DNA of 64,000 nt from Clostridiales bacterium (lineage in GTDB: Bacteria > Bacillota > Clostridia > Saccharofermentanales > Saccharofermentanaceae), in the NCBI GenBank assembly GCA_017529925.1, contig JAFXMZ010000025.1, positions 407-64,406 on the forward strand. The letters are read 5' to 3'. The notes beneath the pieces were generated by a model, which was not told the DNA's origin, ran no database searches, and saw only the letters and a list, made by a program, of their open reading frames with translations. The position numbers and the translations under genes are program-made. Each line of letters opens with the position of its first letter. Position 1 is the stretch's first letter. Below, piece by piece: positions 8,258-49,458 of the stretch.

Positions 8258-8335
8258 TTAAGCTATCATGCGTCAGAAGACGATGTAAAAAGACGCGGTG
8301 AGTACGCGGCTTGGTGCAGGTTGATCCAGGACCGA

Positions 8336-8531
8336 CCTGTACCAAACCGTGTTTTTAGAGAAAATAGTACGTGAAATCGATGGTTTACACGTACCAAATG
8401 TTCTTAATTCGGATGTTTAGTACAGGAAATCTGAGTTTTCCTGTACTAAATGCAAAAATTAGGAAGAAAAGTACAGGAAAACAGCTGTTTTCCTGTACCA
8501 AACATGTGTTTTTCAGCAAAAAAGTACAGGA
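8336..8531. repeat. hairpin-repeat array 1 (52-bp period, GTAC-word stems)
   Basis: Hairpins start at 8367, 8419, 8471 and 8523 (last one partial). Examples: AGTACAGGAAA-TCTGAG-TTTCCTGTACT and the 28-nt perfect palindrome GTACAGGAAAACAGCTGTTTTCCTGTAC. Spacers such as AAACATGTGTTTTTCAG. Confidence 0.8.
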
Positions 8532-18262: not shown

Positions 18263-19033
18263 TCAACGCACGGCAGTGCGGGCGGATACCGTGTGAAGGT
18301 CGGTGATGATATAGAGCATCTTCGCGATCTCGCTCCGTATAACGTTGACCGGCGGCATGTAGATGTCGTCGCCGCACAGGATCAGGAGTTCGCGGCCGAT
18401 GTAGATTCCGCCCATGAGATAATCCTTCAGCTTGAACTTATTGTCGTCGACGTACCGCTCGTCCCTGAGGCGGCCGAGGTACTCGATGAAGAAGCAGCAA
18501 CCGAATTCGGGAAGGTAGACCGCGAAATCGACAGTGTGAGTGATGCCGTTTGTGATGATCTCGCAGTCGTACTTGTAGGTGAGGCCCATTTCGTCGAGGA
18601 CCTGGGCTATGACCATCTCTGCGCGCGATCTGTAGTTAACGTTCCTGTAGAAATAGCGGTTGTTGTTCGGGTAGGTCGTCGCGCACGGTTTGAGGCTGTC
18701 GAAGAAGGCTTTGTCGAAGTTAAGGCGAGGCGATGAGGTGAAGCGGGTGGTCGCGGCGTCATTTTCGATGTTGCTGCCGAAACGGTCGGAGTAGACCTGC
18801 GCCATCTCGTCCAGCTCCTTCTTCAGGGTGGTGCGCAGTTCGTAGAGCTTCGCGTATTCACGGCCTTTGGGGGATGTGGTTCGGTAACGATTTCTGATGC
18901 CGTTATTATTGACAAGGTAAATAGAGTGGCCTCGCTCGGATCTGATGATGATCGACGGGCACTCGTTCAATCTATTATCCAGCAACTTGTAATGTGCCAG
19001 CATGTAGTTTTGTGGATAGTTATCGTAGTTCAT
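18263..19033 (-). CDS. Vsr/DUF559-like (PD-(D/E)XK-type) nuclease-fold protein with unknown N-terminal domain
   Basis: The C-terminal YRSRAEMVIAQVLDEMGLTYKYDCEI...HTVDFAVYLPEFGCCFFIEYLG fits the S-x-x-E ... DF ... IExxG pattern of DUF559/Vsr-like endonuclease domains. The start MNYDNY at 19033 lies 6 nt after a TATAAT, so the mRNA may be leaderless. The ORF extends to 19075. Confidence 0.6.
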   Translation of the reverse strand: MNYDNYPQNYMLAHYKLLDNRLNECPSIIIRSERGHSIYLVNNNGIRNRYRTTSPKGREYAKLYELRTTLKKELDEMAQVYSDRFGSNIENDAATTRFTSSPRLNFDKAFFDSLKPCATTYPNNNRYFYRNVNYRSRAEMVIAQVLDEMGLTYKYDCEIITNGITHTVDFAVYLPEFGCCFFIEYLGRLRDERYVDDNKFKLKDYLMGGIYIGRELLILCGDDIYMPPVNVIRSEIAKMLYIITDLHTVSARTAVR

Positions 19034-19069
19034 GCCTAGATTATAAAGCCGGAGGAGCAAAAAAACTTC

Positions 19070-19125
19070 CGACAATTACCGACAATTACCGACAAAGAAA
19101 ACGACAAAAACGACAAAAACGACAA
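19070..19125 (-). repeat. six phased TTGTCG (CGACAA) direct repeats upstream of the nuclease-fold gene
   Basis: CGACAA at 19070, 19080, 19090, 19102, 19111 and 19120 (spacings 10, 10, 12, 9, 9). Confidence 0.8.
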
Positions 19126-19202
19126 GATCGGGAATGGTGGATTACCTGTGAGGGTTTGAACGAAACCAGGTTTCTGGAGATTAAAACAAAGGGATTTCTG
19201 CT

Positions 19203-19320
19203 GATGTGGCAAAAATGTGGGTAAAATACCCTCTAAAACCCACACTTTTATCCACATTAGGCCTAAGTTGGCAAAAATGTGGGTAAACGAGGCCTAAAAA
19301 ACCACATTTTTACCACATGT
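19203..19320. repeat. hairpin-repeat array 2 (two 62-bp units)
   Basis: TGGCAAAAATGTGGGTAAA at 19207 and 19269. Arms ATGTGGGTAAAA / TTTTATCCACAT and ATGTGGGTAAA / TTTTTACCACAT. Confidence 0.7.
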
Positions 19321-19378
19321 AAAGAATAAATGACAAATTATGCGTGCAGAGACCGCATACGGGGGCTATCTTATGACG

Positions 19379-24725: not shown

Positions 24726-24761
24726 TATGCCGTGTGGGGAGCGGCGGGTGCCGGGCATCTG

Positions 24762-24912
24762 CGGCGGTCCCGGCTGTCCCGGCGGTCCCGTCAGTCCCCG
24801 AAGTCTCGTGGATCCCGACTGTTCCTTCAGTCCCAAAGTGTCCTCGTGAGACCGTTTTGTCCCATCGGGGTGCCCGCAGTCCCGTTTTTGGCCGGAAAGT
24901 GCAAAACGGGTA
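24762..24912. repeat. hairpin/word array 3 (GTCCC words)
   Basis: GTCCC at 24767, 24776, 24785, 24794 (9-bp period), 24830, 24859 and 24879. Hairpin CCCGTTTT-TGGCCGGAAAGTGC-AAAACGGG at 24881-24910. Also CCCAAAGTGTCC...GTTTTGTCCC. Confidence 0.6.
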
Positions 24913-32852: not shown

Positions 32853-32960
32853 AAGTTCCTTTTTTGTTCCTTTTTGCACCGTCAGAAGAGAACATAAAAA
32901 GGAACTTTTTAGTGTATTCCTTTTATTGTTCCTTTTTCCGCCCTCGAAAAGGAACTTTGA
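32853..32960. repeat. hairpin-repeat array 4a (GGAAC words, 62-bp spacing)
   Basis: GTTCCTTTTT-20 nt-AAAAAGGAAC (32866-32905) and GTTCCTTTT-TCCGCCCTCG-AAAAGGAAC (32928-32955). Confidence 0.7.
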
Positions 32961-33011: not shown

Positions 33012-33067
33012 GGATGAGGACGGTTGGATGAGGCCGGTTGGATGAGGCCGGTTGGATGAGGCCGGCG
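33012..33067. repeat. 14-bp tandem repeat GGATGAGGCCGGTT x about 4
   Basis: Units at 33012, 33026, 33040 and 33054; the first unit has a C-to-A variant. Confidence 0.85.
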
Positions 33068-33105
33068 GGTTCTTTTCGAACGGGGGGATTGTCAAAAATC
33101 GTTTA

Positions 33106-33160
33106 GAGTTGGCAAAAAGTTGGCAAAAACGGCCCTCAAAAGCCACGTTTTTGCCAACTC
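33106..33160. repeat. hairpin element 4b (TTGGCAAAAA word)
   Basis: GTTGGCAAAAA duplicated (33108, 33119). A 13-bp perfect stem AGTTGGCAAAAAC / GTTTTTGCCAACT spans 33118-33159. Confidence 0.75.
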
Positions 33161-33340
33161 TCAAAAATATTTGTAGAAGATGCGCGCCGCCGCGTTGTAA
33201 GTGGTATAGTTAAAGGTGATGTGGGAGCGGTCACGGTGCAGGCAAACCGGCCGCAGCGCAGGAAAACCGGCCGCGGCGCAGGCAAACAGGCAGCGCGGGC
33301 AGGAACCTCCCGGAAGCGGGCAGCAACAGGAAGGACACTC

Positions 33341-44400: not shown

Positions 44401-46062
44401 ATGATCAGGGAAACGATCGTCGACGGTTTCAGTAACGCACCGCACCGTTCGCTCTACCACGCGCTCGGTCTTACAAAGGAGGAACTCGAAAGGCCTTTGA
44501 TCGGCATCGTAAGTTCTTATAACGAGATCGTGCCGGGACACATGAATATCGATAAGATCGTCGAGGCCGTAAAGCTCGGCGTTGCAATGGCGGGAGGCAC
44601 TCCGATAGTATTCCCGGCGATCGCCGTCTGCGACGGTATCGCGATGGGCCACAGAGGTATGAAATATTCTCTCGTGACACGTGACCTGATCGCTGATTCG
44701 ACTGAGGCTATGGTCCTCGCGCACGGCTTCGACGGACTCGTCATGGTGCCCAACTGCGACAAGAACGTTCCGGGCCTCATAATGGCTGCGGCACGTCTCA
44801 ATATCCCTACCGTCTTCGTAAGCGGCGGCCCCATGCTCGCAGGCAGGGTCGACGGAAAGAAGAGATCTTTGTCGGCAATGTTTGAGGCGACGGGTGCTTT
44901 CGCCGCAGGAAAGATCGATGAGGCAAAGCTCACGGAATTCGAGGAGAAGGTCTGCCCGACATGCGGCTCCTGCTCAGGAATGTATACGGCAAATTCGATG
45001 AACTGCCTGACCGAAGTCCTCGGTCTGGGACTGCGCGGCAACGGAACGATCCCTGCCGTCTACTCGTCGAGGATCGAGCTCGCAAAGCACGCCGGAATGC
45101 AGGTCATGGAGTGCGTCAGGAATAACATCAGGCCGCGCGATATCCTTACCGAGGCCGCTTTCGAGAATGCGCTCGCAGCCGACATGGCTATCGGATGCTC
45201 GACTAACTCGATGCTCCACATCCCCGCTATCGCTAATGAGTGCGGCATAAAGATCGACCTTACACACGTTAACGAGATCTCCGAAAGGACACCGAACATC
45301 TGCCATCTGGCACCTGCAGGCCCGACCTATATGGAGGACCTGAACGAAGCAGGCGGCATCCATGCCGTAATGAAGGAACTGCTCGACGGCGGCCTCATAA
45401 ACGGCGATGTCATGACAGTTACAGGAAAGACTCTGAAAGAGAATGTCGCCGATTCCGTTGTCTACGATAAGGAAGTCATCAGACCCCTGTCCGATCCGTT
45501 CTCGAAGACGGGCGGACTTGCAGTCCTGAAGGGCAACCTGGCACCTGACGGATGCGTTGTAAAGAGGTCCGCGGTCGCTCCCGAGATGCTCGTCCACGAA
45601 GGACCCGCGAGATGCTTTGATTCCGAGGAGGATGCGATCGCATTCATCTATTCGGGCAAGGTACAGCCCGGTGACGTTATCGTCATCAGATATGAAGGCC
45701 CCGCAGGCGGTCCCGGAATGAGGGAGATGCTCTCGCCCACGTCCGCAATCGCGGGTATGGGACTAGATAAGGATGTTGCCCTCATCACAGACGGAAGGTT
45801 TTCCGGCGCGACGAGAGGCGCGTCTATCGGACATATCTCGCCCGAGGCGGTATCGGGCGGCCTCATCGCCTACGTCAAGGACGGCGACATCATATCGATC
45901 AACATCCCCGAATATTCCATCTCGCTCAAGGTCTCCGATGAAGAGATCGAGGAGAGGAAGAAGACTGTCGAGATAAAGAAAAGGACCGATCTGTCGGGCT
46001 ATCTCAAGCGTTATGCCGCAGCCGTTTCCTCGGCTGACAAGGGAGCGATAATCAATGTCTGA
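44401..46062 (+). CDS. ilvD: dihydroxy-acid dehydratase
   Basis: [34 protein letters not shown]. The ATG at 44401 lies 10 nt after AAGGAG; the ORF extends to 44380. Confidence 0.93.
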
Positions 46063-47257
46063 ACTGCTAAGAAGGATAGATTCCATGGCGCTCTTCAGGG
46101 GTGTGCGCAACCGCGAGCCCCTGAACAGCCTGTGTGAATATCTTCTCAAGACCGAAGGCGGCTACACGATCGACGAAACGATCGCTGCCTATTCGAAGTT
46201 CGTTGCCGCACTCTATGAAGTCAGGAGCGACGCCGATCTGTCGGGCGCTATCTGGGACTGCCTCGTCTCTGACATGAACCCGTTCCTCCGCCACCGCATC
46301 GACTCCGTCGTATCACCCGGTGACACGACCGAGATGAGCACTCTCATCACACTGACTGCGGAGCGCGAGCTCGACCTTCTGACCGAGATCGGAAACCACA
46401 CATCGACCGAGTTCAAGGAGCAGATCTTCTATGACGGATACCTCCCCGATTTCCGCTCCTCGCATATCGATATGAAGAAGCGCTACATGCGCATGATCGA
46501 CAACATCGAAAGGGACGGTTACGGCATCTTTGCGAAGTACATCATGTTCTGTGTCAAGGAAGGACAGGTCGTTCCCGTAAAGCATCCCGATCCCATAAAG
46601 ACGGATGACCTCTACTGCTATGAGATACCGCGTAAGAAAGTGATCGACAACACGGCCGCATTTATCGCGGGCAAGCCTGCCGCCGATGTCCTCCTCTACG
46701 GCGACGCCGGCACGGGCAAATCCTCGACGGTCAAGGCCGTATCCCGCATGTTCGCGGGCGCAGGAGTCCGTCTTGTCGAAGTGCCCAAGCAGGAGATCAG
46801 GAATATCTCTTCCGTCATCGAGAGACTGTCACAGGTTCCGATGAAGTTCATCATCTTTCTGGACGATATCTCGTTCGAAGCGGATGATCCCATGATCGGC
46901 ATCTTCAAGTCCGTACTCGAGGGCGCAGCCTCGGGCGGAAGAAAGAATATCGTCATCTATGCCACGAGCAACAGGAGACATATAGTCAAGGAATCTTTTG
47001 CCGACAGGCAGAATGAAGTTCACCTGACTGATACGATCGCAGAACAGACTTCGCTGTCCGAGAGGTTCGGCCTGAGGATCCTTTTCGATAAGCCGAACAA
47101 AAAGGACTATCTGGAGATCGTTAAGAAGCTTGCGTCTTCGCGCGGCATCACCATGCCCGAAGAGGAGCTCGAGGCAGAAGCCGAGAAGTTTGCCTTAAGG
47201 GGCGGCGGACGCACTGCAAGACTCGCGCGCCAGTTCATCGATTCGCTCTGCTGCTGA
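46055..47257 (+). CDS. DUF815-type P-loop ATPase
   Basis: Walker [17 protein letters not shown] and Walker [11 protein letters not shown]. Overlaps the ilvD stop by 8 nt. Confidence 0.75.
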
Positions 47258-47450
47258 GGCTTTTGGCTTCGCGCGGATATTGCGCGGATATTGCGCGGAG
47301 CCTTTTCGATATGATGGACAAAGGTTCCGGACAGTTAACGGAAGTGAGACAGTTTGTTCATCCTTACGTAACAACTCGCGATTTGACTAGTGCTATACTT
47401 GAGACAGTTAAGCAAGGCTTAACACAAATTGTAAGGAGGAGGTGAGACCA

Positions 47451-47510
47451 ATGGGACAGGATGAGCAATCGCTTATGATGTCGGGTTTTGCTTCTTCCGA
47501 ATTTTCTTAA
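47451..47510 (+). CDS. candidate 19-aa small ORF (MGQDEQSLMMSGFASSEFS) with strong SD
   Basis: Not in the ORF track. TAAGGAGGAGGTGAGACCA precedes the ATG. Downstream CUUCUUCC could pair with the SD. Function unknown. Confidence 0.3.
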   Translation: MGQDEQSLMMSGFASSEFS

Positions 47511-47600
47511 CAGGTTTTATTTTCTTACGTCGGGAAGAGAACTACAGGTAAAAGACCTGGAACGGCAGATCGCTTAAGCGATTATCACAAATCAACTACA

Positions 47601-47630
47601 GGAGCCGCCTTATCGGACGGCTCCTTTTTT
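47601..47630 (+). terminator. intrinsic terminator
   Basis: GGAGCCGCC-TTAT-CGGACGGCTCC-TTTTTT. Confidence 0.8.
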
Positions 47631-47654
47631 GCGGGATATTTTTCTGCATTTCAG

Positions 47655-48249
47655 TAATGGTCCGGAGGGGAGTTATCCCAAAATCCGTTTTTTCCGGTTT
47701 TGGGGTCTTTGGGATAACGATCATGCCGTTTTGTTATCCCCAATTGGGATTTTTCAGGGTTTGGGATAACTGGAAGATTTGGGATTCATCCCCAATGGCC
47801 GTTTTTGATGGTTTGGGATGAAATCTCAGAGGGTTTTTCATCCCAAATGTGCGTTTTCTGGCGGTTTGGGATGATATCGCAGAAAGTTTATCATCCCAGA
47901 TGTGCGTTTTCAGGCAGTTTGGGATGAAATCGCAGAAAGTTTTTCATCCCAAATGTGCGTTTTCTGGCGGTTTGGGATGAAATCGCAGAAGTTTATTCAT
48001 CACGAAAGGGCTTTTTTCAGGAGTTGGGGATGCATAGGCGGAGAACAGATGCATCCCCAAAGTGCGATTTTCAAAAATGGGGATGCATAGGCGGAGAACA
48101 AATGCATCCCCAAAGTGCGATTTTCAAAAATGGGGATGCATAAGCGGAGAACAAATGCATCCCCAAAGTGCGATTTTTAAAAATGGGGATGCATCGCCGG
48201 AGAACAAATGCATCCCCAAAGTGTGATTTTCAAAAATGGGGATGCATAG
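47655..48249. repeat. hairpin-repeat array 5 (about 11 units, 52-53-bp period)
   Basis: Unit starts at 47708, 47760, 47812, 47865, 47918, 47971, 48025, 48078, 48131, 48184 and 48237. Stems GGGATAAC/GTTATCCC, GGGATGAAA/TTTCATCCC, GGGATGATA/TATCATCCC and GGGGATGCAT/ATGCATCCCC. Confidence 0.9.
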
Positions 48250-48279
48250 CAGACCGTATGAAAGGAAGTAATGCGCAAA

Positions 48280-48413
48280 ACCGGTGGCCGGCCCGCAGAT
48301 ATAATACAGATCCGCATGCACTGTCAAGGCAGTATCCGCTGGAGCGTCGGCAAAGCCGACCTTGACATTCCTGCATGTCGGATCTGTTCCCGGTATACAA
48401 GCCGGCCACCGGT
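48280..48413 (+). repeat. conserved long imperfect hairpin element, copy B
   Basis: ACCGGTGGCCGGC (48280-48292) ... ACAGATCCG (48306-48314)-CATGCA-CTGTCAAGG ... CCTTGACA ... CGGATCTGT (48379-48387) ... GCCGGCCACCGGT (48401-48413). Confidence 0.8.
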
Positions 48414-48510
48414 TGGAGGCCTTTTTGCCGCAATTGGGCAGTTGAAAACGATGACCATAAAGTATAGTATCGAAGCATATAAAATGATCATTATATGAGA
48501 GGATGAGAAT

Positions 48511-49458
48511 ATGAAAAGACCGGTATTGAGGACAGCTGTTGCGGCGTTACTGTCAGCATCCATGCTGTTTGCTGCTTTCGCGATGTGTTCCTGCTCCGAT
48601 AACGGCAATAAGAGCAGGAAGGAACGCAGGTCAGCGCACAGCCGTGACCGCGACGATGACGATGAAGAGACTGAAGAGACAGAAGATACTGAAGAGAGCG
48701 AGTCGGAGATCGTCCCCACTGAAACTTCGGAAGATCCGGAGATCGTCCCCACGGAAACATCGGAAGATCCGGAGATCCCGGGCAGTGAAGACAGGCCTTG
48801 CCTCAAGGTCGCGACCAATGCATACTTTCCTCCTTTCGAGTATTACGACGGTGACGTGATGAAGGGTTTTGATATCGATGTCATCGATGAGATCTGCGAC
48901 GAGATGAATGTTGATTATGAGATCGAAGATACCGAGTTCAGCGGGTTGCTGGCCGGCCTTACGGATGGAAGATATGATGTGGTGATAGCCGGAATGGTCG
49001 CTACGCAAGAGCGCCTTCAGGCGGTCGATGCGTCGATGCCTTACTATTCGAATATCCTGCTCGTAGTGACATGGGAGGATCTGGACATAATGACGCCGGA
49101 TGACCTTTACGGACGTGACGATCTGACGATCGGAGTCCTGGAGGGAACGACGGGTGATCTCTACGCTTCGGAGGATCTGGGAGAGGAGCATGTGATGAGA
49201 TTTACCGACAAGGATGCCATGTTCAGGGCTCTTGATGAAGGAAACCTCGATTGCATCATCGTCTATCAGCAGGATGCGGTAAAGTGCCTTGCAAGATACG
49301 AGGGCCTGAGACCGCTCGAAGAACCGTATGCGATCGAGGAATATGTTATCTTTGTCGGCAAAGGCAATGAGGAGCTCCTGAGTAAGATAAATGCAGCAAT
49401 CCAGAATATGAAGGAGACGAGGAAGATCGAGATCATCGAAAACCGCTACATAGGGTGA
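48511..49458 (+). CDS. amino-acid ABC transporter substrate-binding lipoprotein with acidic repeat linker
   Basis: Lipobox AAFAMCSC. 33-bp tandem repeat encoding EIVPTETSEDP x2. LKVATNAYFPPFEYYDGD...GFDIDVIDEI is family-3 SBP-like. Confidence 0.85.
   Translation: MKRPVLRTAVAALLSASMLFAAFAMCSCSDNGNKSRKERRSAHSRDRDDDDEETEETEDTEESESEIVPTETSEDPEIVPTETSEDPEIPGSEDRPCLKVATNAYFPPFEYYDGDVMKGFDIDVIDEICDEMNVDYEIEDTEFSGLLAGLTDGRYDVVIAGMVATQERLQAVDASMPYYSNILLVVTWEDLDIMTPDDLYGRDDLTIGVLEGTTGDLYASEDLGEEHVMRFTDKDAMFRALDEGNLDCIIVYQQDAVKCLARYEGLRPLEEPYAIEEYVIFVGKGNEELLSKINAAIQNMKETRKIEIIENRYIG

Follow-up and report, generated by a model that had tools for sequence, protein, structure and literature searches.

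The tandem array at positions 47655-48247 (array A) of the 64-kb stretch of DNA analysed here (the window) is very probably a non-coding satellite of the class of Firmicutes repeats that combine a constant 52-nt unit with a variable sequence, and it is carried by an uncultured Saccharofermentans-like rumen Clostridium. The original prediction stated that the array fits no known repeat class; however, it matches the published tandem repeats of Firmicutes that keep a length of 52 nt and vary in sequence (PMC8161180). This class is known from Bacillus and Paenibacillus and from a few further Firmicutes (Subirana & Messeguer, IJMS 2021, PMC8161180). Its members are non-coding, contain 4-10 units, occur in many arrays and as several families of the same length per genome and are partially conserved between strains, and their units often hold short signals together with their own reverse complement (PMC8161180). 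In the window we found two arrays, array A and array B (8310-8531), which share a 51-53-nt unit that is constant both within and between the arrays. As in the published class, they are non-coding and intergenic, the unit length is not a multiple of three, several families are present in one genome (the GGGAT word of array A and the GTACAGG word of array B within a single 64-kb window), each unit contains a word and its reverse complement, and the host belongs to the Bacillota. The nearest named homologues of the DUF815 protein encoded next to array A were those of Ruminococcaceae bacterium KH2T8 and Saccharofermentans sp., and a T-box leader was present. Subirana and Messeguer reportedly also wrote on the 52-nt constant-length, variable-sequence tandem repeats of Firmicutes in J Bacteriol in 2020.

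A significant inverted repeat of 7-13 bp was detected in 15 of the 24 published Bacillus consensus units, and in many published consensus units the inverted repeat is followed by an AAA..TTTT spacer, as can be seen when the thermoamylovorans unit ...CTCGTCGCCAAAAAatGGAGTTTTcCGG is compared with ...CATCCCAAATGTGCGTTTTCTGG of the window. The published cases come mainly from Bacillus and Paenibacillus, whereas those described here come from rumen Clostridia and from an isolate named Butyrivibrio sp. AE2032. Among rumen Clostridia the class is first seen here, in the Saccharofermentans-like organism, and array A extends it from the Bacilli to these anaerobes. The 52-nt repeats are a published puzzle, with a single unit length, many sequences and an occurrence in Firmicutes only, and our results add three constraints on any explanation, namely a conserved core word at fixed spacing, centres that evolve much faster than the arms and A/T tracts at intervals of about 10.5 bp, by which the unit is five turns long. 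The helical AA/TT periodicity, the covariation of the arms and the faster divergence of the centres are unreported in the 2021 papers on the class (PMC8161180, PMC8625621).

Array A consisted of 10 full and 2 partial units of 52-53 bp in three sub-blocks. Each unit comprised an inverted repeat of 10-12 bp, a centre of 12-14 nt and a spacer of 17-20 nt, the lengths of the centre and the spacer varying with the choice of the arm end. Thus, the predicted 52-53-bp array with inverted arms proved to be real, with unit starts that agreed within 1 nt with those listed earlier. The left arms started at 47708, 47760 (an irregular unit), 47812, 47865, 47918, 47971, 48024, 48078, 48131, 48184 and 48237, and the inverted arms were TTTGGGATAAC/GTTATCCCCAA, TTTGGGATGAAA/TTTCATCCCAAA, TGGGATGATA/TATCATCCCA and TTGGGGATGCAT/ATGCATCCCCAA. 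The words switch orientation alternately, end to end. Tandem Repeats Finder reported a period of 53 both at 47785-48001 (4.1 copies, 87% matches, score 320) and at 48025-48249 (4.2 copies, 94% matches, score 408).

The array begins about 25 bp past an intrinsic terminator of the upstream unit (the DUF815 gene and a small ORF) at 47600..47631 on the plus strand, which has an 8-bp stem AGGAGCCG/CGGCTCCT followed by TTTTTT and is conserved in position in the strain contigs. All parts of array A are given for the plus strand. A degenerate leading unit (47655..47707) is reduced to a right-arm-like GTTATCCCAAA and a spacer of the form A4-N4-T6, and its positions 47672-47682 pair with the following left arm. 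Sub-block A0 (47708..47811) contains two units with the arms GGGATAAC/GTTATCCC; the covariance model matched 47708-47760 with 36.9 bits, and the second unit is irregular, with an internal partial duplication of greater length in other strains. Sub-block A1 (47812..48023) is formed by four 53-bp units (period 53) that scored 56.7-67.4 bits with the covariance model, with the arms TTTGGGATGA(A/T)A / T(T/A)TCATCCCAAA, the centre TCGCAGAAAGTT and the spacer TGTGCGTTTTCTGGCGG. Sub-block A2 (48024..48247), identified by a period of 53 at 94% and by the covariance model, contains four 53-bp units and a terminal left arm (48237-48247), with the arms (T)TGGGGATGCAT/ATGCATCCCCA(A) and the spacer AAGTGCGATTTTCAAAAA. 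A 136-bp palindromic MITE-like element at 48279..48414, with 14-bp terminal inverted repeats AACCGGTGGCCGGC and a DNA fold z-score of -7.1, was found only in strains that also have sub-block A2, and probably does not belong to the repeat system. No ORF of at least 80 aa was present in 47258-48229, and in the gene calls of the contig 47258-48510 contains no gene, up to a solute-binding-protein gene (48511-49458) downstream of the array. The neighbourhood is that of a housekeeping chromosomal region, with the ilv operon and its T-box, rpsF-ssb-rpsR-rplI-dnaB-tilS-hpt-ftsH, prfA and prfC.

Array A departed strongly from chance. The best inverted repeat of each of its units comprised 11-12 pairs compared with 5.5 in shuffles, and the RNA fold z-score of the array was -9.0 for the plus strand and -7.3 for the minus strand. 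Among 22 distinct units (array A of the window, its strain variants and array B) the 12-bp stem was 90.4% paired, compared with 74% in column shuffles and 32-53% in slid registers, and 8 of the 12 stem pairs had changed on both sides, which bears out the earlier observation that the two arms differ jointly between sub-blocks. The further claim that pairing and not sequence is conserved could be upheld only in part. The degree of pairing and the joint change of the arms agree with it, but the core word (TT)GGGAT/ATCCC(AA) was kept from one sub-block and strain to the next and at 16 loci of a related organism, most strain variants had mismatches at the inner stem positions (GGGATGATA with TTTTTCATCCC), and wobble pairs, accounting for 6 of the 31 non-Watson-Crick cells, were not enriched over approximately their chance share. 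The per-site difference between units was 0.03-0.05 in the arms, 0.07-0.16 in the spacers and 0.13-0.36 in the centres, i.e., the centres diverged 3-9 times faster than the arms. With a centre of 12-14 nt the extrusion of a cruciform would be energetically unlikely. The search of Rfam that had been suggested earlier revealed no RNA family matching array A: at gathering thresholds only T-box, tRNA and TPP riboswitch were found in the whole window, and at permissive E-values the best match within 47200-48600 had an E of 0.13, with every match far under the threshold.

The array gains and loses entire units and sub-blocks between strains. As in the published class, the copy number is variable: sub-block A1 contained 3, 4 or 5 units, and sub-block A2 contained 0, 3, 4 or 5 units across eight strain contigs (missing in L014, L015, L016 and L018, 3 units in L011/L012 and 5 in L013), as counted in short-read metagenome assemblies in which two contigs stop inside the array. 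The comparison of unit numbers between strains, proposed along with the original prediction, thus detected variation of both units and whole sub-blocks. In the relatives L002, L003 and L005 (68-70% protein identity) the next gene follows directly after DUF815 and the locus has no array, and a scan of the genome collection with the flanking DUF815 protein found 3 loci, none of them with an array. The likeness of units inside one sub-block is the outcome of concerted evolution, and since an arm variant spreads along with its partner arm, it looks as if only pairing were conserved. In the window strain one arm mismatch was fixed in two ways, as GATGAAA in three units and as TTTATCATC in one unit.

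Array B (8310..8531, plus strand), placed between a tRNA-Pro terminator and a convergent gene, consists of four 51-53-bp units and a terminal left arm; it could be aligned column for column with array A and scored 32-47 bits with the covariance model. Its words, GTAC(A/G)(G/T)G / C(C/A)(C/T)GTAC, are located at 8314, 8367, 8420, 8471 and 8524 (periods of 53, 53, 51 and 53), and its spacer has the CCAAA..GTG..TTTTTC form seen in array A. The words were spaced by 25/28 and 26/27 in array A and by 21-22/31-32 in array B, with the unit length remaining constant. The covariance model of the unit was too specific for the detection of units in other organisms, giving 3 weak matches in 252 kb.

Arrays of this kind were abundant in a relative whose contigs were 99% identical, as judged by one protein, to the cultured Butyrivibrio sp. 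AE2032, an array-rich isolate for experiments. In this AE2032-like organism 52-bp arrays with the same core word GGGAT/ATCCC occupied at least 16 loci, and at least 20 arrays lay on 16 contigs that had been picked by a pattern search. GGGATAA was present in 52 of the 54 units from the 16 loci, with a gap of 19 nt between the cores in 51 of the 54, and pairing past 7 bp was not kept. A period of 52 dominated (25 arrays, compared with 2 arrays with period 51 and 13 with period 53), and half of the arrays counted for the period fell outside the search pattern. The contigs carried units of the GGGATAA, GATATCG and GGTATCG types, and a composite order in which a GGGATAA block stands beside a GATATCG block occurred at no fewer than 7 loci. 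The arrays were located 3' of neighbouring genes as often as 5', the orientation of the units relative to the flanking genes was variable, and relative to the GC skew it was of opposite sign in 5 of 7 cases and of the same sign in 2. The only gene families recurring beside the approximately 20 arrays encoded choline-binding-repeat and solute-binding proteins; no transposase was among them.

AA/TT dinucleotides recurred every 10.4-10.6 bp in array A, in array B and in many published families of the class, which lends support to the earlier idea that the unit corresponds to five helical turns. The fifth AA/TT harmonic (10.4-10.6 bp) was the strongest in 11 of 28 non-redundant families compared with 2.9 expected (Fisher p 2e-5 overall and 1.5e-3 for the published Bacillus families alone), and in 8 of the 13 new consensus units. 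The 10.5-bp signal was absent from sub-block A2 and from about half of the published families. With A/T tracts every ~10.5 bp and a unit of five helical turns, each unit would present the same face; however, this argument applies only to the comparison of one unit with the next, as successive words in array A are 2.5 turns apart and hence face opposite sides.

The best explanation of the arrays, possible although we stop short of calling it probable, is a helically phased duplex-DNA platform for a sequence-specific factor. Each unit consists of two opposed copies of a word with the core TTGGGAT/ATCCCAA, separated by a 12-14-nt centre that is free to vary and followed by the spacer A3-N5-6-T4-5. 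The AA/TT periodicity, the constant unit length with a differing partition, the lack of wobble enrichment, the variable orientation and the location of array B between convergent genes suggest that the array may act at the level of duplex DNA. Word-specific recognition is favoured by the GGGATAA word and the 19-nt gap of nearly all AE2032-like units. The conserved word at fixed spacing could provide a single sequence-specific DNA-binding factor with docking sites in many copies, this factor being an architectural protein, a nucleoid protein or the machinery by which the repeats spread; no candidate gene recurred beside the arrays. The array would then be a phased protein platform or a curved segment located in an untranscribed gap that follows a terminator, and neither an RNA gene nor an operator for a single neighbouring gene. 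A bolder version of this reading is quite improbable. It takes the 52-53-bp satellites as positioning arrays for a putative Firmicutes-specific architectural factor, with a lineage-specific word and exactly five turns per unit; linked to it, an orphan nuclease-like protein could be a trans-acting enzyme that recognises, maintains or spreads hairpin repeats. If true, the positioning arrays would be a bacterial counterpart of protein-phased satellite DNA.

The arrays could also be a selfish or neutral satellite without host function, whose REP/BIME- or MITE-like palindromic unit spreads intergenically and expands by slippage, with template switching at the quasi-palindrome keeping the arms complementary. 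We regard this as rather doubtful. The presence or absence of units and entire sub-blocks between strains and the relatives lacking the array at the locus fit a dispensable or selfish element, and the composite GGGATAA and GATATCG order at 7 or more AE2032-like loci, the location behind terminators, where an insertion is harmless, and the arm mismatch repaired in two ways, exactly as template switching predicts, point in the same direction. However, no transposase or RAYT-type gene was detected among the ORFs scanned in the 64-kb window or beside the approximately 20 arrays, the AA/TT periodicity is unexpected for a neutral repeat, and the maintenance of 51-53 bp across Bacilli and Clostridia despite full sequence turnover is hard to explain without constraint (PMC8161180). 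An array of RNA hairpins, i.e., a transcribed string of stem-loops that serves as the precursor of small RNAs, titrates proteins or RNAs as a sponge or stabilises 3' ends, is unlikely. Folding far better than shuffles on both strands, the 90% paired stem with both-sided change in 8 of 12 pairs and the transcription of the B. coagulans 52-nt repeats, seen in RNA-seq reads (Subirana & Messeguer, Genes 2021, PMC8625621), speak for it. At the same time, the intrinsic terminator ~25 bp upstream and the lack of a convincing promoter toward array A (within the array there was one weak consensus match, not above shuffles) argue against transcription of the array. Moreover, wobble pairs are not enriched, the orientation to neighbouring genes varies, no Rfam family matches, the AE2032-like stem of just 7 A/T-rich pairs around a 15-nt loop is a weak hairpin, and RNA structure would not need a fixed total length combined with a variable split into stem, loop and spacer.

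It is very improbable that array A regulates the solute-binding-protein gene 48511-49458 locally, through operator repeats or as a copy-number switch that changes the promoter distance while keeping the helical phase. The array is situated upstream of this gene with a strain-variable copy number, and several of the relative's arrays adjoin genes for surface or solute-binding proteins. Nevertheless, the 136-bp element and ~100 bp more separate array A from the likely promoter, at least 16 unrelated loci share the word, the relative's arrays lie 3' of their neighbours as often as 5', and array B, being located between convergent genes, has no promoter to control, which excludes a promoter-operator role for it. 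The centromere- or iteron-like role proposed in the original prediction, i.e., a sopC-type partition site or a replication site, is hardly credible. Tandem direct repeats that each contain an inverted repeat, with a period of whole helical turns, resemble such sites, but the region around array A is chromosomal and of housekeeping type, par and rep genes are absent from it, and BLAST revealed no similarity to 72,556 plasmid and 50,697 phage records. When viral contigs were scanned with patterns, 2 and 0 matches were obtained, as expected by chance, and many arrays with several words per genome misfit a single centromere. In the sopC centromere of plasmid F, a 43-bp direct repeat is present 12 times, and SopB binds the 7-bp inverted repeat that every copy contains. 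The arrays share with it the tandem direct repeats with an inverted-repeat site (a protein site in sopC) and a period near whole helical turns; however, sopC is located on a plasmid beside sopAB as one array with one word, whereas here many arrays with several words are chromosomal, with no partition gene.

REP/BIME elements of enterobacteria and pseudomonads are extragenic imperfect palindromes that are clustered, species-specific and present in many copies, and they dock architectural proteins such as IHF and gyrase. REPs have a conserved GT(A/G)G next to the palindrome, and the gene for RAYT, a Y1 transposase, is usually REP-flanked. The arrays resemble REP/BIME in their alternating orientation, two alternating spacer types and location behind genes, but they lack GT(A/G)G by the stem, their long centre of 12-15 nt is flanked by arms of only 7-12 bp, and their strict 52-53-bp period is not a REP/BIME trait. 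Neither GTAG nor GTGG was present: the sequence just before the left arms was GGCGGTTT or CAAAAAT in array A, and in array B it was (A/T)A(A/T)A. A scan of ~40 ORFs of the window, the contig's gene calls for ~36-57 kb and the recurrent neighbours of the ~20 arrays revealed no RAYT gene. The association of RAYT with REPs provides the model for the role proposed above for the orphan nuclease-like protein with hairpin repeats. The BOX elements of pneumococcus (tandem 45-nt boxB modules) and the MIRU-VNTRs of mycobacteria (51-77 bp) are conserved in sequence within a species. The arrays are likewise intergenic and dispersed, with tandem modules of ~45-53 nt and a strain-variable number, but BOX and MIRU do not follow the rule of one length with many sequences, and MIRUs, which overlap translational signals, are not built from hairpins.

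With its regularly spaced, partial palindromes and its alternation of conserved and variable stretches, the array is also reminiscent of CRISPR, which was ruled out: the variable stretch is 12-14 nt long and the copies are related by point mutations. The 53-bp unit, compared with about 60-75 bp, and the many arrays per genome are further differences, and neither the ~40 scanned ORFs of the window nor the contig's gene calls for ~36-57 kb included a cas gene. Arrays of this type break short-read assemblies, and repeat finders could mistake them for CRISPRs. Several known binding sites were considered and rejected. For the DnaA box consensus, TTATCCCCA and TTATCCACA differ in the key position; 12 of the 15 positions of the CodY box were reached by the spacer of sub-block A2 only; and the resemblances to AbrB TGGNA pairs and Fur-type GATAAT half-sites were dropped. 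The array units were also rejected as intrinsic terminators, as the U-tract does not adjoin the stem on the plus strand.

The original prediction of a dispersed family in the window was correct for 8310-8531, which shares the unit with array A, but not for the other four sites: the covariance model gave no match at E <= 10 with filters off at 19203-19320, 32853-32960, 24762-24912 and 33106-33160. The sites 19203-19320 and 33106-33160 represent a different, ~60-nt double-word hairpin element, and 32853-32960 and 24762-24912 are other word clusters. A 53-bp array in L004, the word of which (GGGTAA) is similar to GGGATAA, was ruled out as an orthologue of array A, because it is the double-word hairpin element that stands before a nuclease-like gene in every locus. 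The window also encodes, at 18263-19075 on the minus strand, an orphan protein of ~250 aa with a restriction-endonuclease-like fold. Directly upstream of this orphan nuclease-like gene, tandem double-word hairpin units with a genome-specific word were present at all 6 of the 6 loci examined.

The repeats at 47655-48247 (array A) form a genuine tandem array, as had been proposed in the original prediction, since Tandem Repeats Finder reported a period of 53 for two stretches, 47785-48001 (4.1 copies, 87%) and 48025-48249 (4.2 copies, 94%). The predicted inverted arms were also recovered, with left-arm starts agreeing to within 1 nt. The array consists of three sub-blocks: A0 (47708-47811; arms GGGATAAC/GTTATCCC; two units, the second of them irregular), A1 (47812-48023; TTTGGGATGAAA/TTTCATCCCAAA; four units) and A2 (48024-48236; TGGGGATGCAT/ATGCATCCCCA; four units); it opens with a degenerate unit and closes with a left arm alone. 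Subirana and Messeguer have described "enigmatic" non-coding tandem repeats whose unit is constant at 52 nt (51-53) and variable in sequence; these occur in Firmicutes only, chiefly in Bacillus and Paenibacillus, with several families per genome, typically comprise 4-10 units, hold short signals and their reverse complement within one unit, and are only partially conserved between strains (PMC8161180). In all testable respects, array A and the second array of the window (array B, 8310-8531), which uses another word, agreed with this class. The layout is common to both, and several published consensus units continue with an AAA..TTTT spacer; a significant inverted repeat of 7-13 bp was found in 15 of the 24 published consensus units. 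The function of the 52-nt repeats is not known (PMC8161180), and the titles and abstracts of five papers citing the 2020 J Bacteriol description suggest no explanation of them. Array A is thus a genuine feature, of a class already described that lacks an explanation.

The claim that pairing and not sequence is conserved in the arms held only in part. In an alignment of 22 distinct units from the window, its strain variants and array B, which are related to one another and represent only about four independent arm-change events, the 12-bp stem was 90.4% paired (74% when columns were shuffled, 32-53% when the register was slid) and 8 of the 12 stem pairs had changed on both sides, so the arms do differ jointly between sub-blocks. 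However, the stem base (TT)GGGAT/ATCCC(AA) was invariant. The A1 units of seven other strain contigs mostly read GGGATGATA...TTTTTCATCCC, in which T faces T as a mismatch at position eight. The window strain departs from this, the mismatch having been removed in two ways, by GATGAAA in three units and by TTTATCATC in one.

Via proteins at least 90% identical to those of the two flanking genes, a further eight conspecific contigs were found. The number of A1 units per strain was 3, 4 or 5 and that of A2 units 0, 3, 4 or 5, with two contigs breaking off inside the array, a kind of repeat that short-read assemblies handle badly. Per-site differences among distinct units were smallest in the arms (0.03-0.05), intermediate in the spacers (0.07-0.16) and largest in the centres (0.13-0.36), and therefore the centre is free to vary, whereas the arms and spacer are either under constraint or kept alike by homogenisation. 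A MITE-like palindromic element of 136 bp (48279-48414), bounded by the 14-bp terminal inverted repeats AACCGGTGGCCGGC, occurs in only some of the strains and always jointly with the A2 block.

When a metagenome collection was scanned for two successive GGGAT...ATCCC units, 103 loci were obtained, and period-52 arrays were observed on at least 13 contigs from one sample and on several others. The period histogram over the 0.89 Mb of fetched DNA peaked at 51, 52 and 53 (2, 25 and 13 arrays, respectively), and the search pattern was absent from 20 of the 40 arrays of period 50-54. One array-bearing contig (L048) encodes a protein 99% identical to that of a cultured isolate from the rumen, Butyrivibrio sp. 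AE2032. The GC content of this AE2032-like organism (about 0.49) and two ORFs on other array-bearing contigs found in that scan (L103, L025), which share 69-77% identity with proteins of Saccharofermentans-like loci, suggest that such organisms would belong in the Saccharofermentans-like clade, the broad clade of the window, and not in Butyrivibrio despite the name. In 54 units from 16 of the loci, GGGATAA was present in 52 and the core-to-core gap was 19 nt in 51, while pairing past 7 bp was not maintained. Because the word is conserved and its spacing fixed, with spacers and centres being locus-specific, these sequences suggest that one sequence-specific factor may recognise the word, rather than that selection acts on the hairpin alone. 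In AE2032-like loci the GGGATAA/TTATCCC blocks adjoin GATATCGTTTT/AAAACGATATC blocks and GGTATCGAAA hairpins, in an order constant at at least seven loci; those of L021, L023, L032, L053, L067, L096 and L103 are composite intergenic mosaics of several hundred bp with a 52-bp period, in which GGGATAA units are followed by GATATCGTTTT units and then by GGTATCGAAA hairpins. The neighbouring genes encode choline-binding-repeat and solute-binding proteins, and no transposases were found among the genes adjoining these arrays.

To describe the helical rhythm of the units, the Fourier spectrum of AA/TT dinucleotides was calculated with every unit taken as circular. In 11 of the 28 non-redundant families the fifth harmonic (10.4-10.6 bp) outranked all others, compared with the 2.9 expected from shuffles preserving tracts (Fisher P = 2e-5 for all families, and 1.5e-3 when only the 24 published Bacillus families are counted). 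The signal was seen in A1 (P = 0.045) and array B (P = 0.001), A2 showed none in this spectrum, and the same harmonic again ranked first in 8 of 13 new consensus units from AE2032-like loci. Word spacings are 25/28 and 26/27 bp in array A and 21-22/31-32 bp in array B, so that the unit length is constant and the internal split varies. A five-turn total with a free split is more readily explained by a constraint acting on duplex DNA than by one acting on the fold of an RNA, although this is the weakest link of the argument.

We tentatively favour, at a little under even chances, a helically phased array on duplex DNA on which a putative word-specific factor would dock, and which would turn over unit by unit through slippage and local homogenisation. 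The authors of the 52-nt class proposed either a scaffold of protein on the nucleoid or small RNAs (PMC8161180). That array A is an array of RNA hairpins appears unlikely to us: it folds far better than shuffles on both strands (z of -9.0 and -7.3), and 52-nt repeats of B. coagulans are present in RNA-seq reads (PMC8625621), but no Rfam family matched the array, and wobble pairs made up 6 of the 31 non-Watson-Crick cells, which is about their chance share and therefore no specific pointer to RNA. A selfish or neutral satellite we consider somewhat unlikely. The array is not a CRISPR and has no similarity to plasmid or phage DNA. Array B, which has the terminator of a tRNA on one side and a convergent gene on the other, is for that reason not a promoter operator.

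The region of array A is ordinary chromosome. The window, 64 kb long and part of a metagenome contig of 72 kb, has a T-box-controlled ilv operon, rpsF-ssb-rpsR-rplI-dnaB-tilS-hpt-ftsH, prfA, prfC, malQ and a TPP riboswitch, and no transposase, cas, par or rep gene was detected among about 40 scanned ORFs of the window and the gene calls of the contig. For the DUF815 ATPase encoded beside the array, the closest named relatives (65-69% identity) are from Ruminococcaceae bacterium KH2T8 and Saccharofermentans MAGs, which are rumen Clostridia. The 1.25-kb gap holding array A runs from the DUF815 gene (46055-47257) through a small ORF or sRNA-like unit, the intrinsic terminator at 47600-47631, array A itself and the palindromic element to a solute-binding lipoprotein gene (48511-49458). 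Straight after the DUF815 stop codon, an 11-bp repeat GCGCGGATATT (47271-47299, 2.6 copies) varies in copy number and sequence among strains, with an extra GCGCGGGCATC in two of them (L015, L016). The module at 47400-47631, which follows the DUF815 gene and resembles a small transcription unit, combines a strong RBS (GGAGGTGAG), a 19-22-codon ORF (MGQDEQSLMMSGFASSEFS), a conserved GGTTTTATTTTCTT hairpin and the terminator; its outline is kept in a different genus (L004:11290-11505), and its product could be either a small protein or an sRNA. The lipoprotein carries an acidic linker (48663-48777) built from 9-nt and 33-nt repeats (PEIVPTETSED twice), with alleles of 312 or 315 aa among strains.

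A dispersed family within the window was not borne out, as the covariance model of the unit matched only arrays A and B (E ≤ 10, filters off). Two of the sites assigned to it are instead a double-word hairpin element of about 60 nt, distinct from the 52-bp units and present in three copies (19198-19262 and 19260-19324, 62 bp apart, and 33102-33166), with the structure [word-A5-word]-loop-[word'-T5-word'], the word TGTGG/TTGGCA and the loop GGCCCTC. The copies at 19198-19324 adjoin an orphan gene on the minus strand (18263-19075), whose product of about 250 aa had no Pfam match; a set of 5.8 billion proteins contained only five homologues of it, and L004 has a further, distant one. At all six orphan-gene loci (in the window with 19069-19125 and 19198-19324; L004:11521-12560; L124-L127:2650-3760), about two tandem double-word hairpin units precede the gene, their word being genome-specific (TGTGG, GTACG, CGTAC, GCCA, GGGTAA), and are followed by 3-6 copies of (A/T)TTGT(C/A) about 10 bp apart. 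The AlphaFold model (pLDDT 79.8, pTM 0.70) gave fold matches, all weak (E > 0.01), to AF1548, R2 endonuclease, Bax1, Card1/Can2 and MunI, which coherently, if weakly, point to restriction-endonuclease-like domains; a Holliday-junction resolvase, matched weakly in PHROG, is in line with such a fold. This nuclease-like reading of the orphan protein is a lead and not a finding.

Two further sites proposed as family members, 32853-32960 and 24762-24912, are local word clusters that align with neither element. The latter lies within 24750-24912, just past the Sua5/YwlC gene terminator, where (A/G/T)GTCCC was seen in a cluster of about nine direct copies, four copies of the 9-bp tandem repeat CGGCGGTCC being part of it, together with a CCCGTTTT..AAAACGGG hairpin, and nothing matched the 52-bp unit model. 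Upstream of a Bmp/PnrA-like lipoprotein gene, a GTTCC/GGAAC cluster with flanking T5/A5 tracts (32853-32960 and 33012-33065) accompanies a 14-bp tandem repeat GGATGAGGCCGGTT (3.9 copies). In addition, a dense nest of inverted repeats on the word ATGATATA/TATATCAT (1871-1923), lying directly 5' of a DUF3990 gene and of the HTH_3 (XRE-type) gene that comes after it, is probably an operator.
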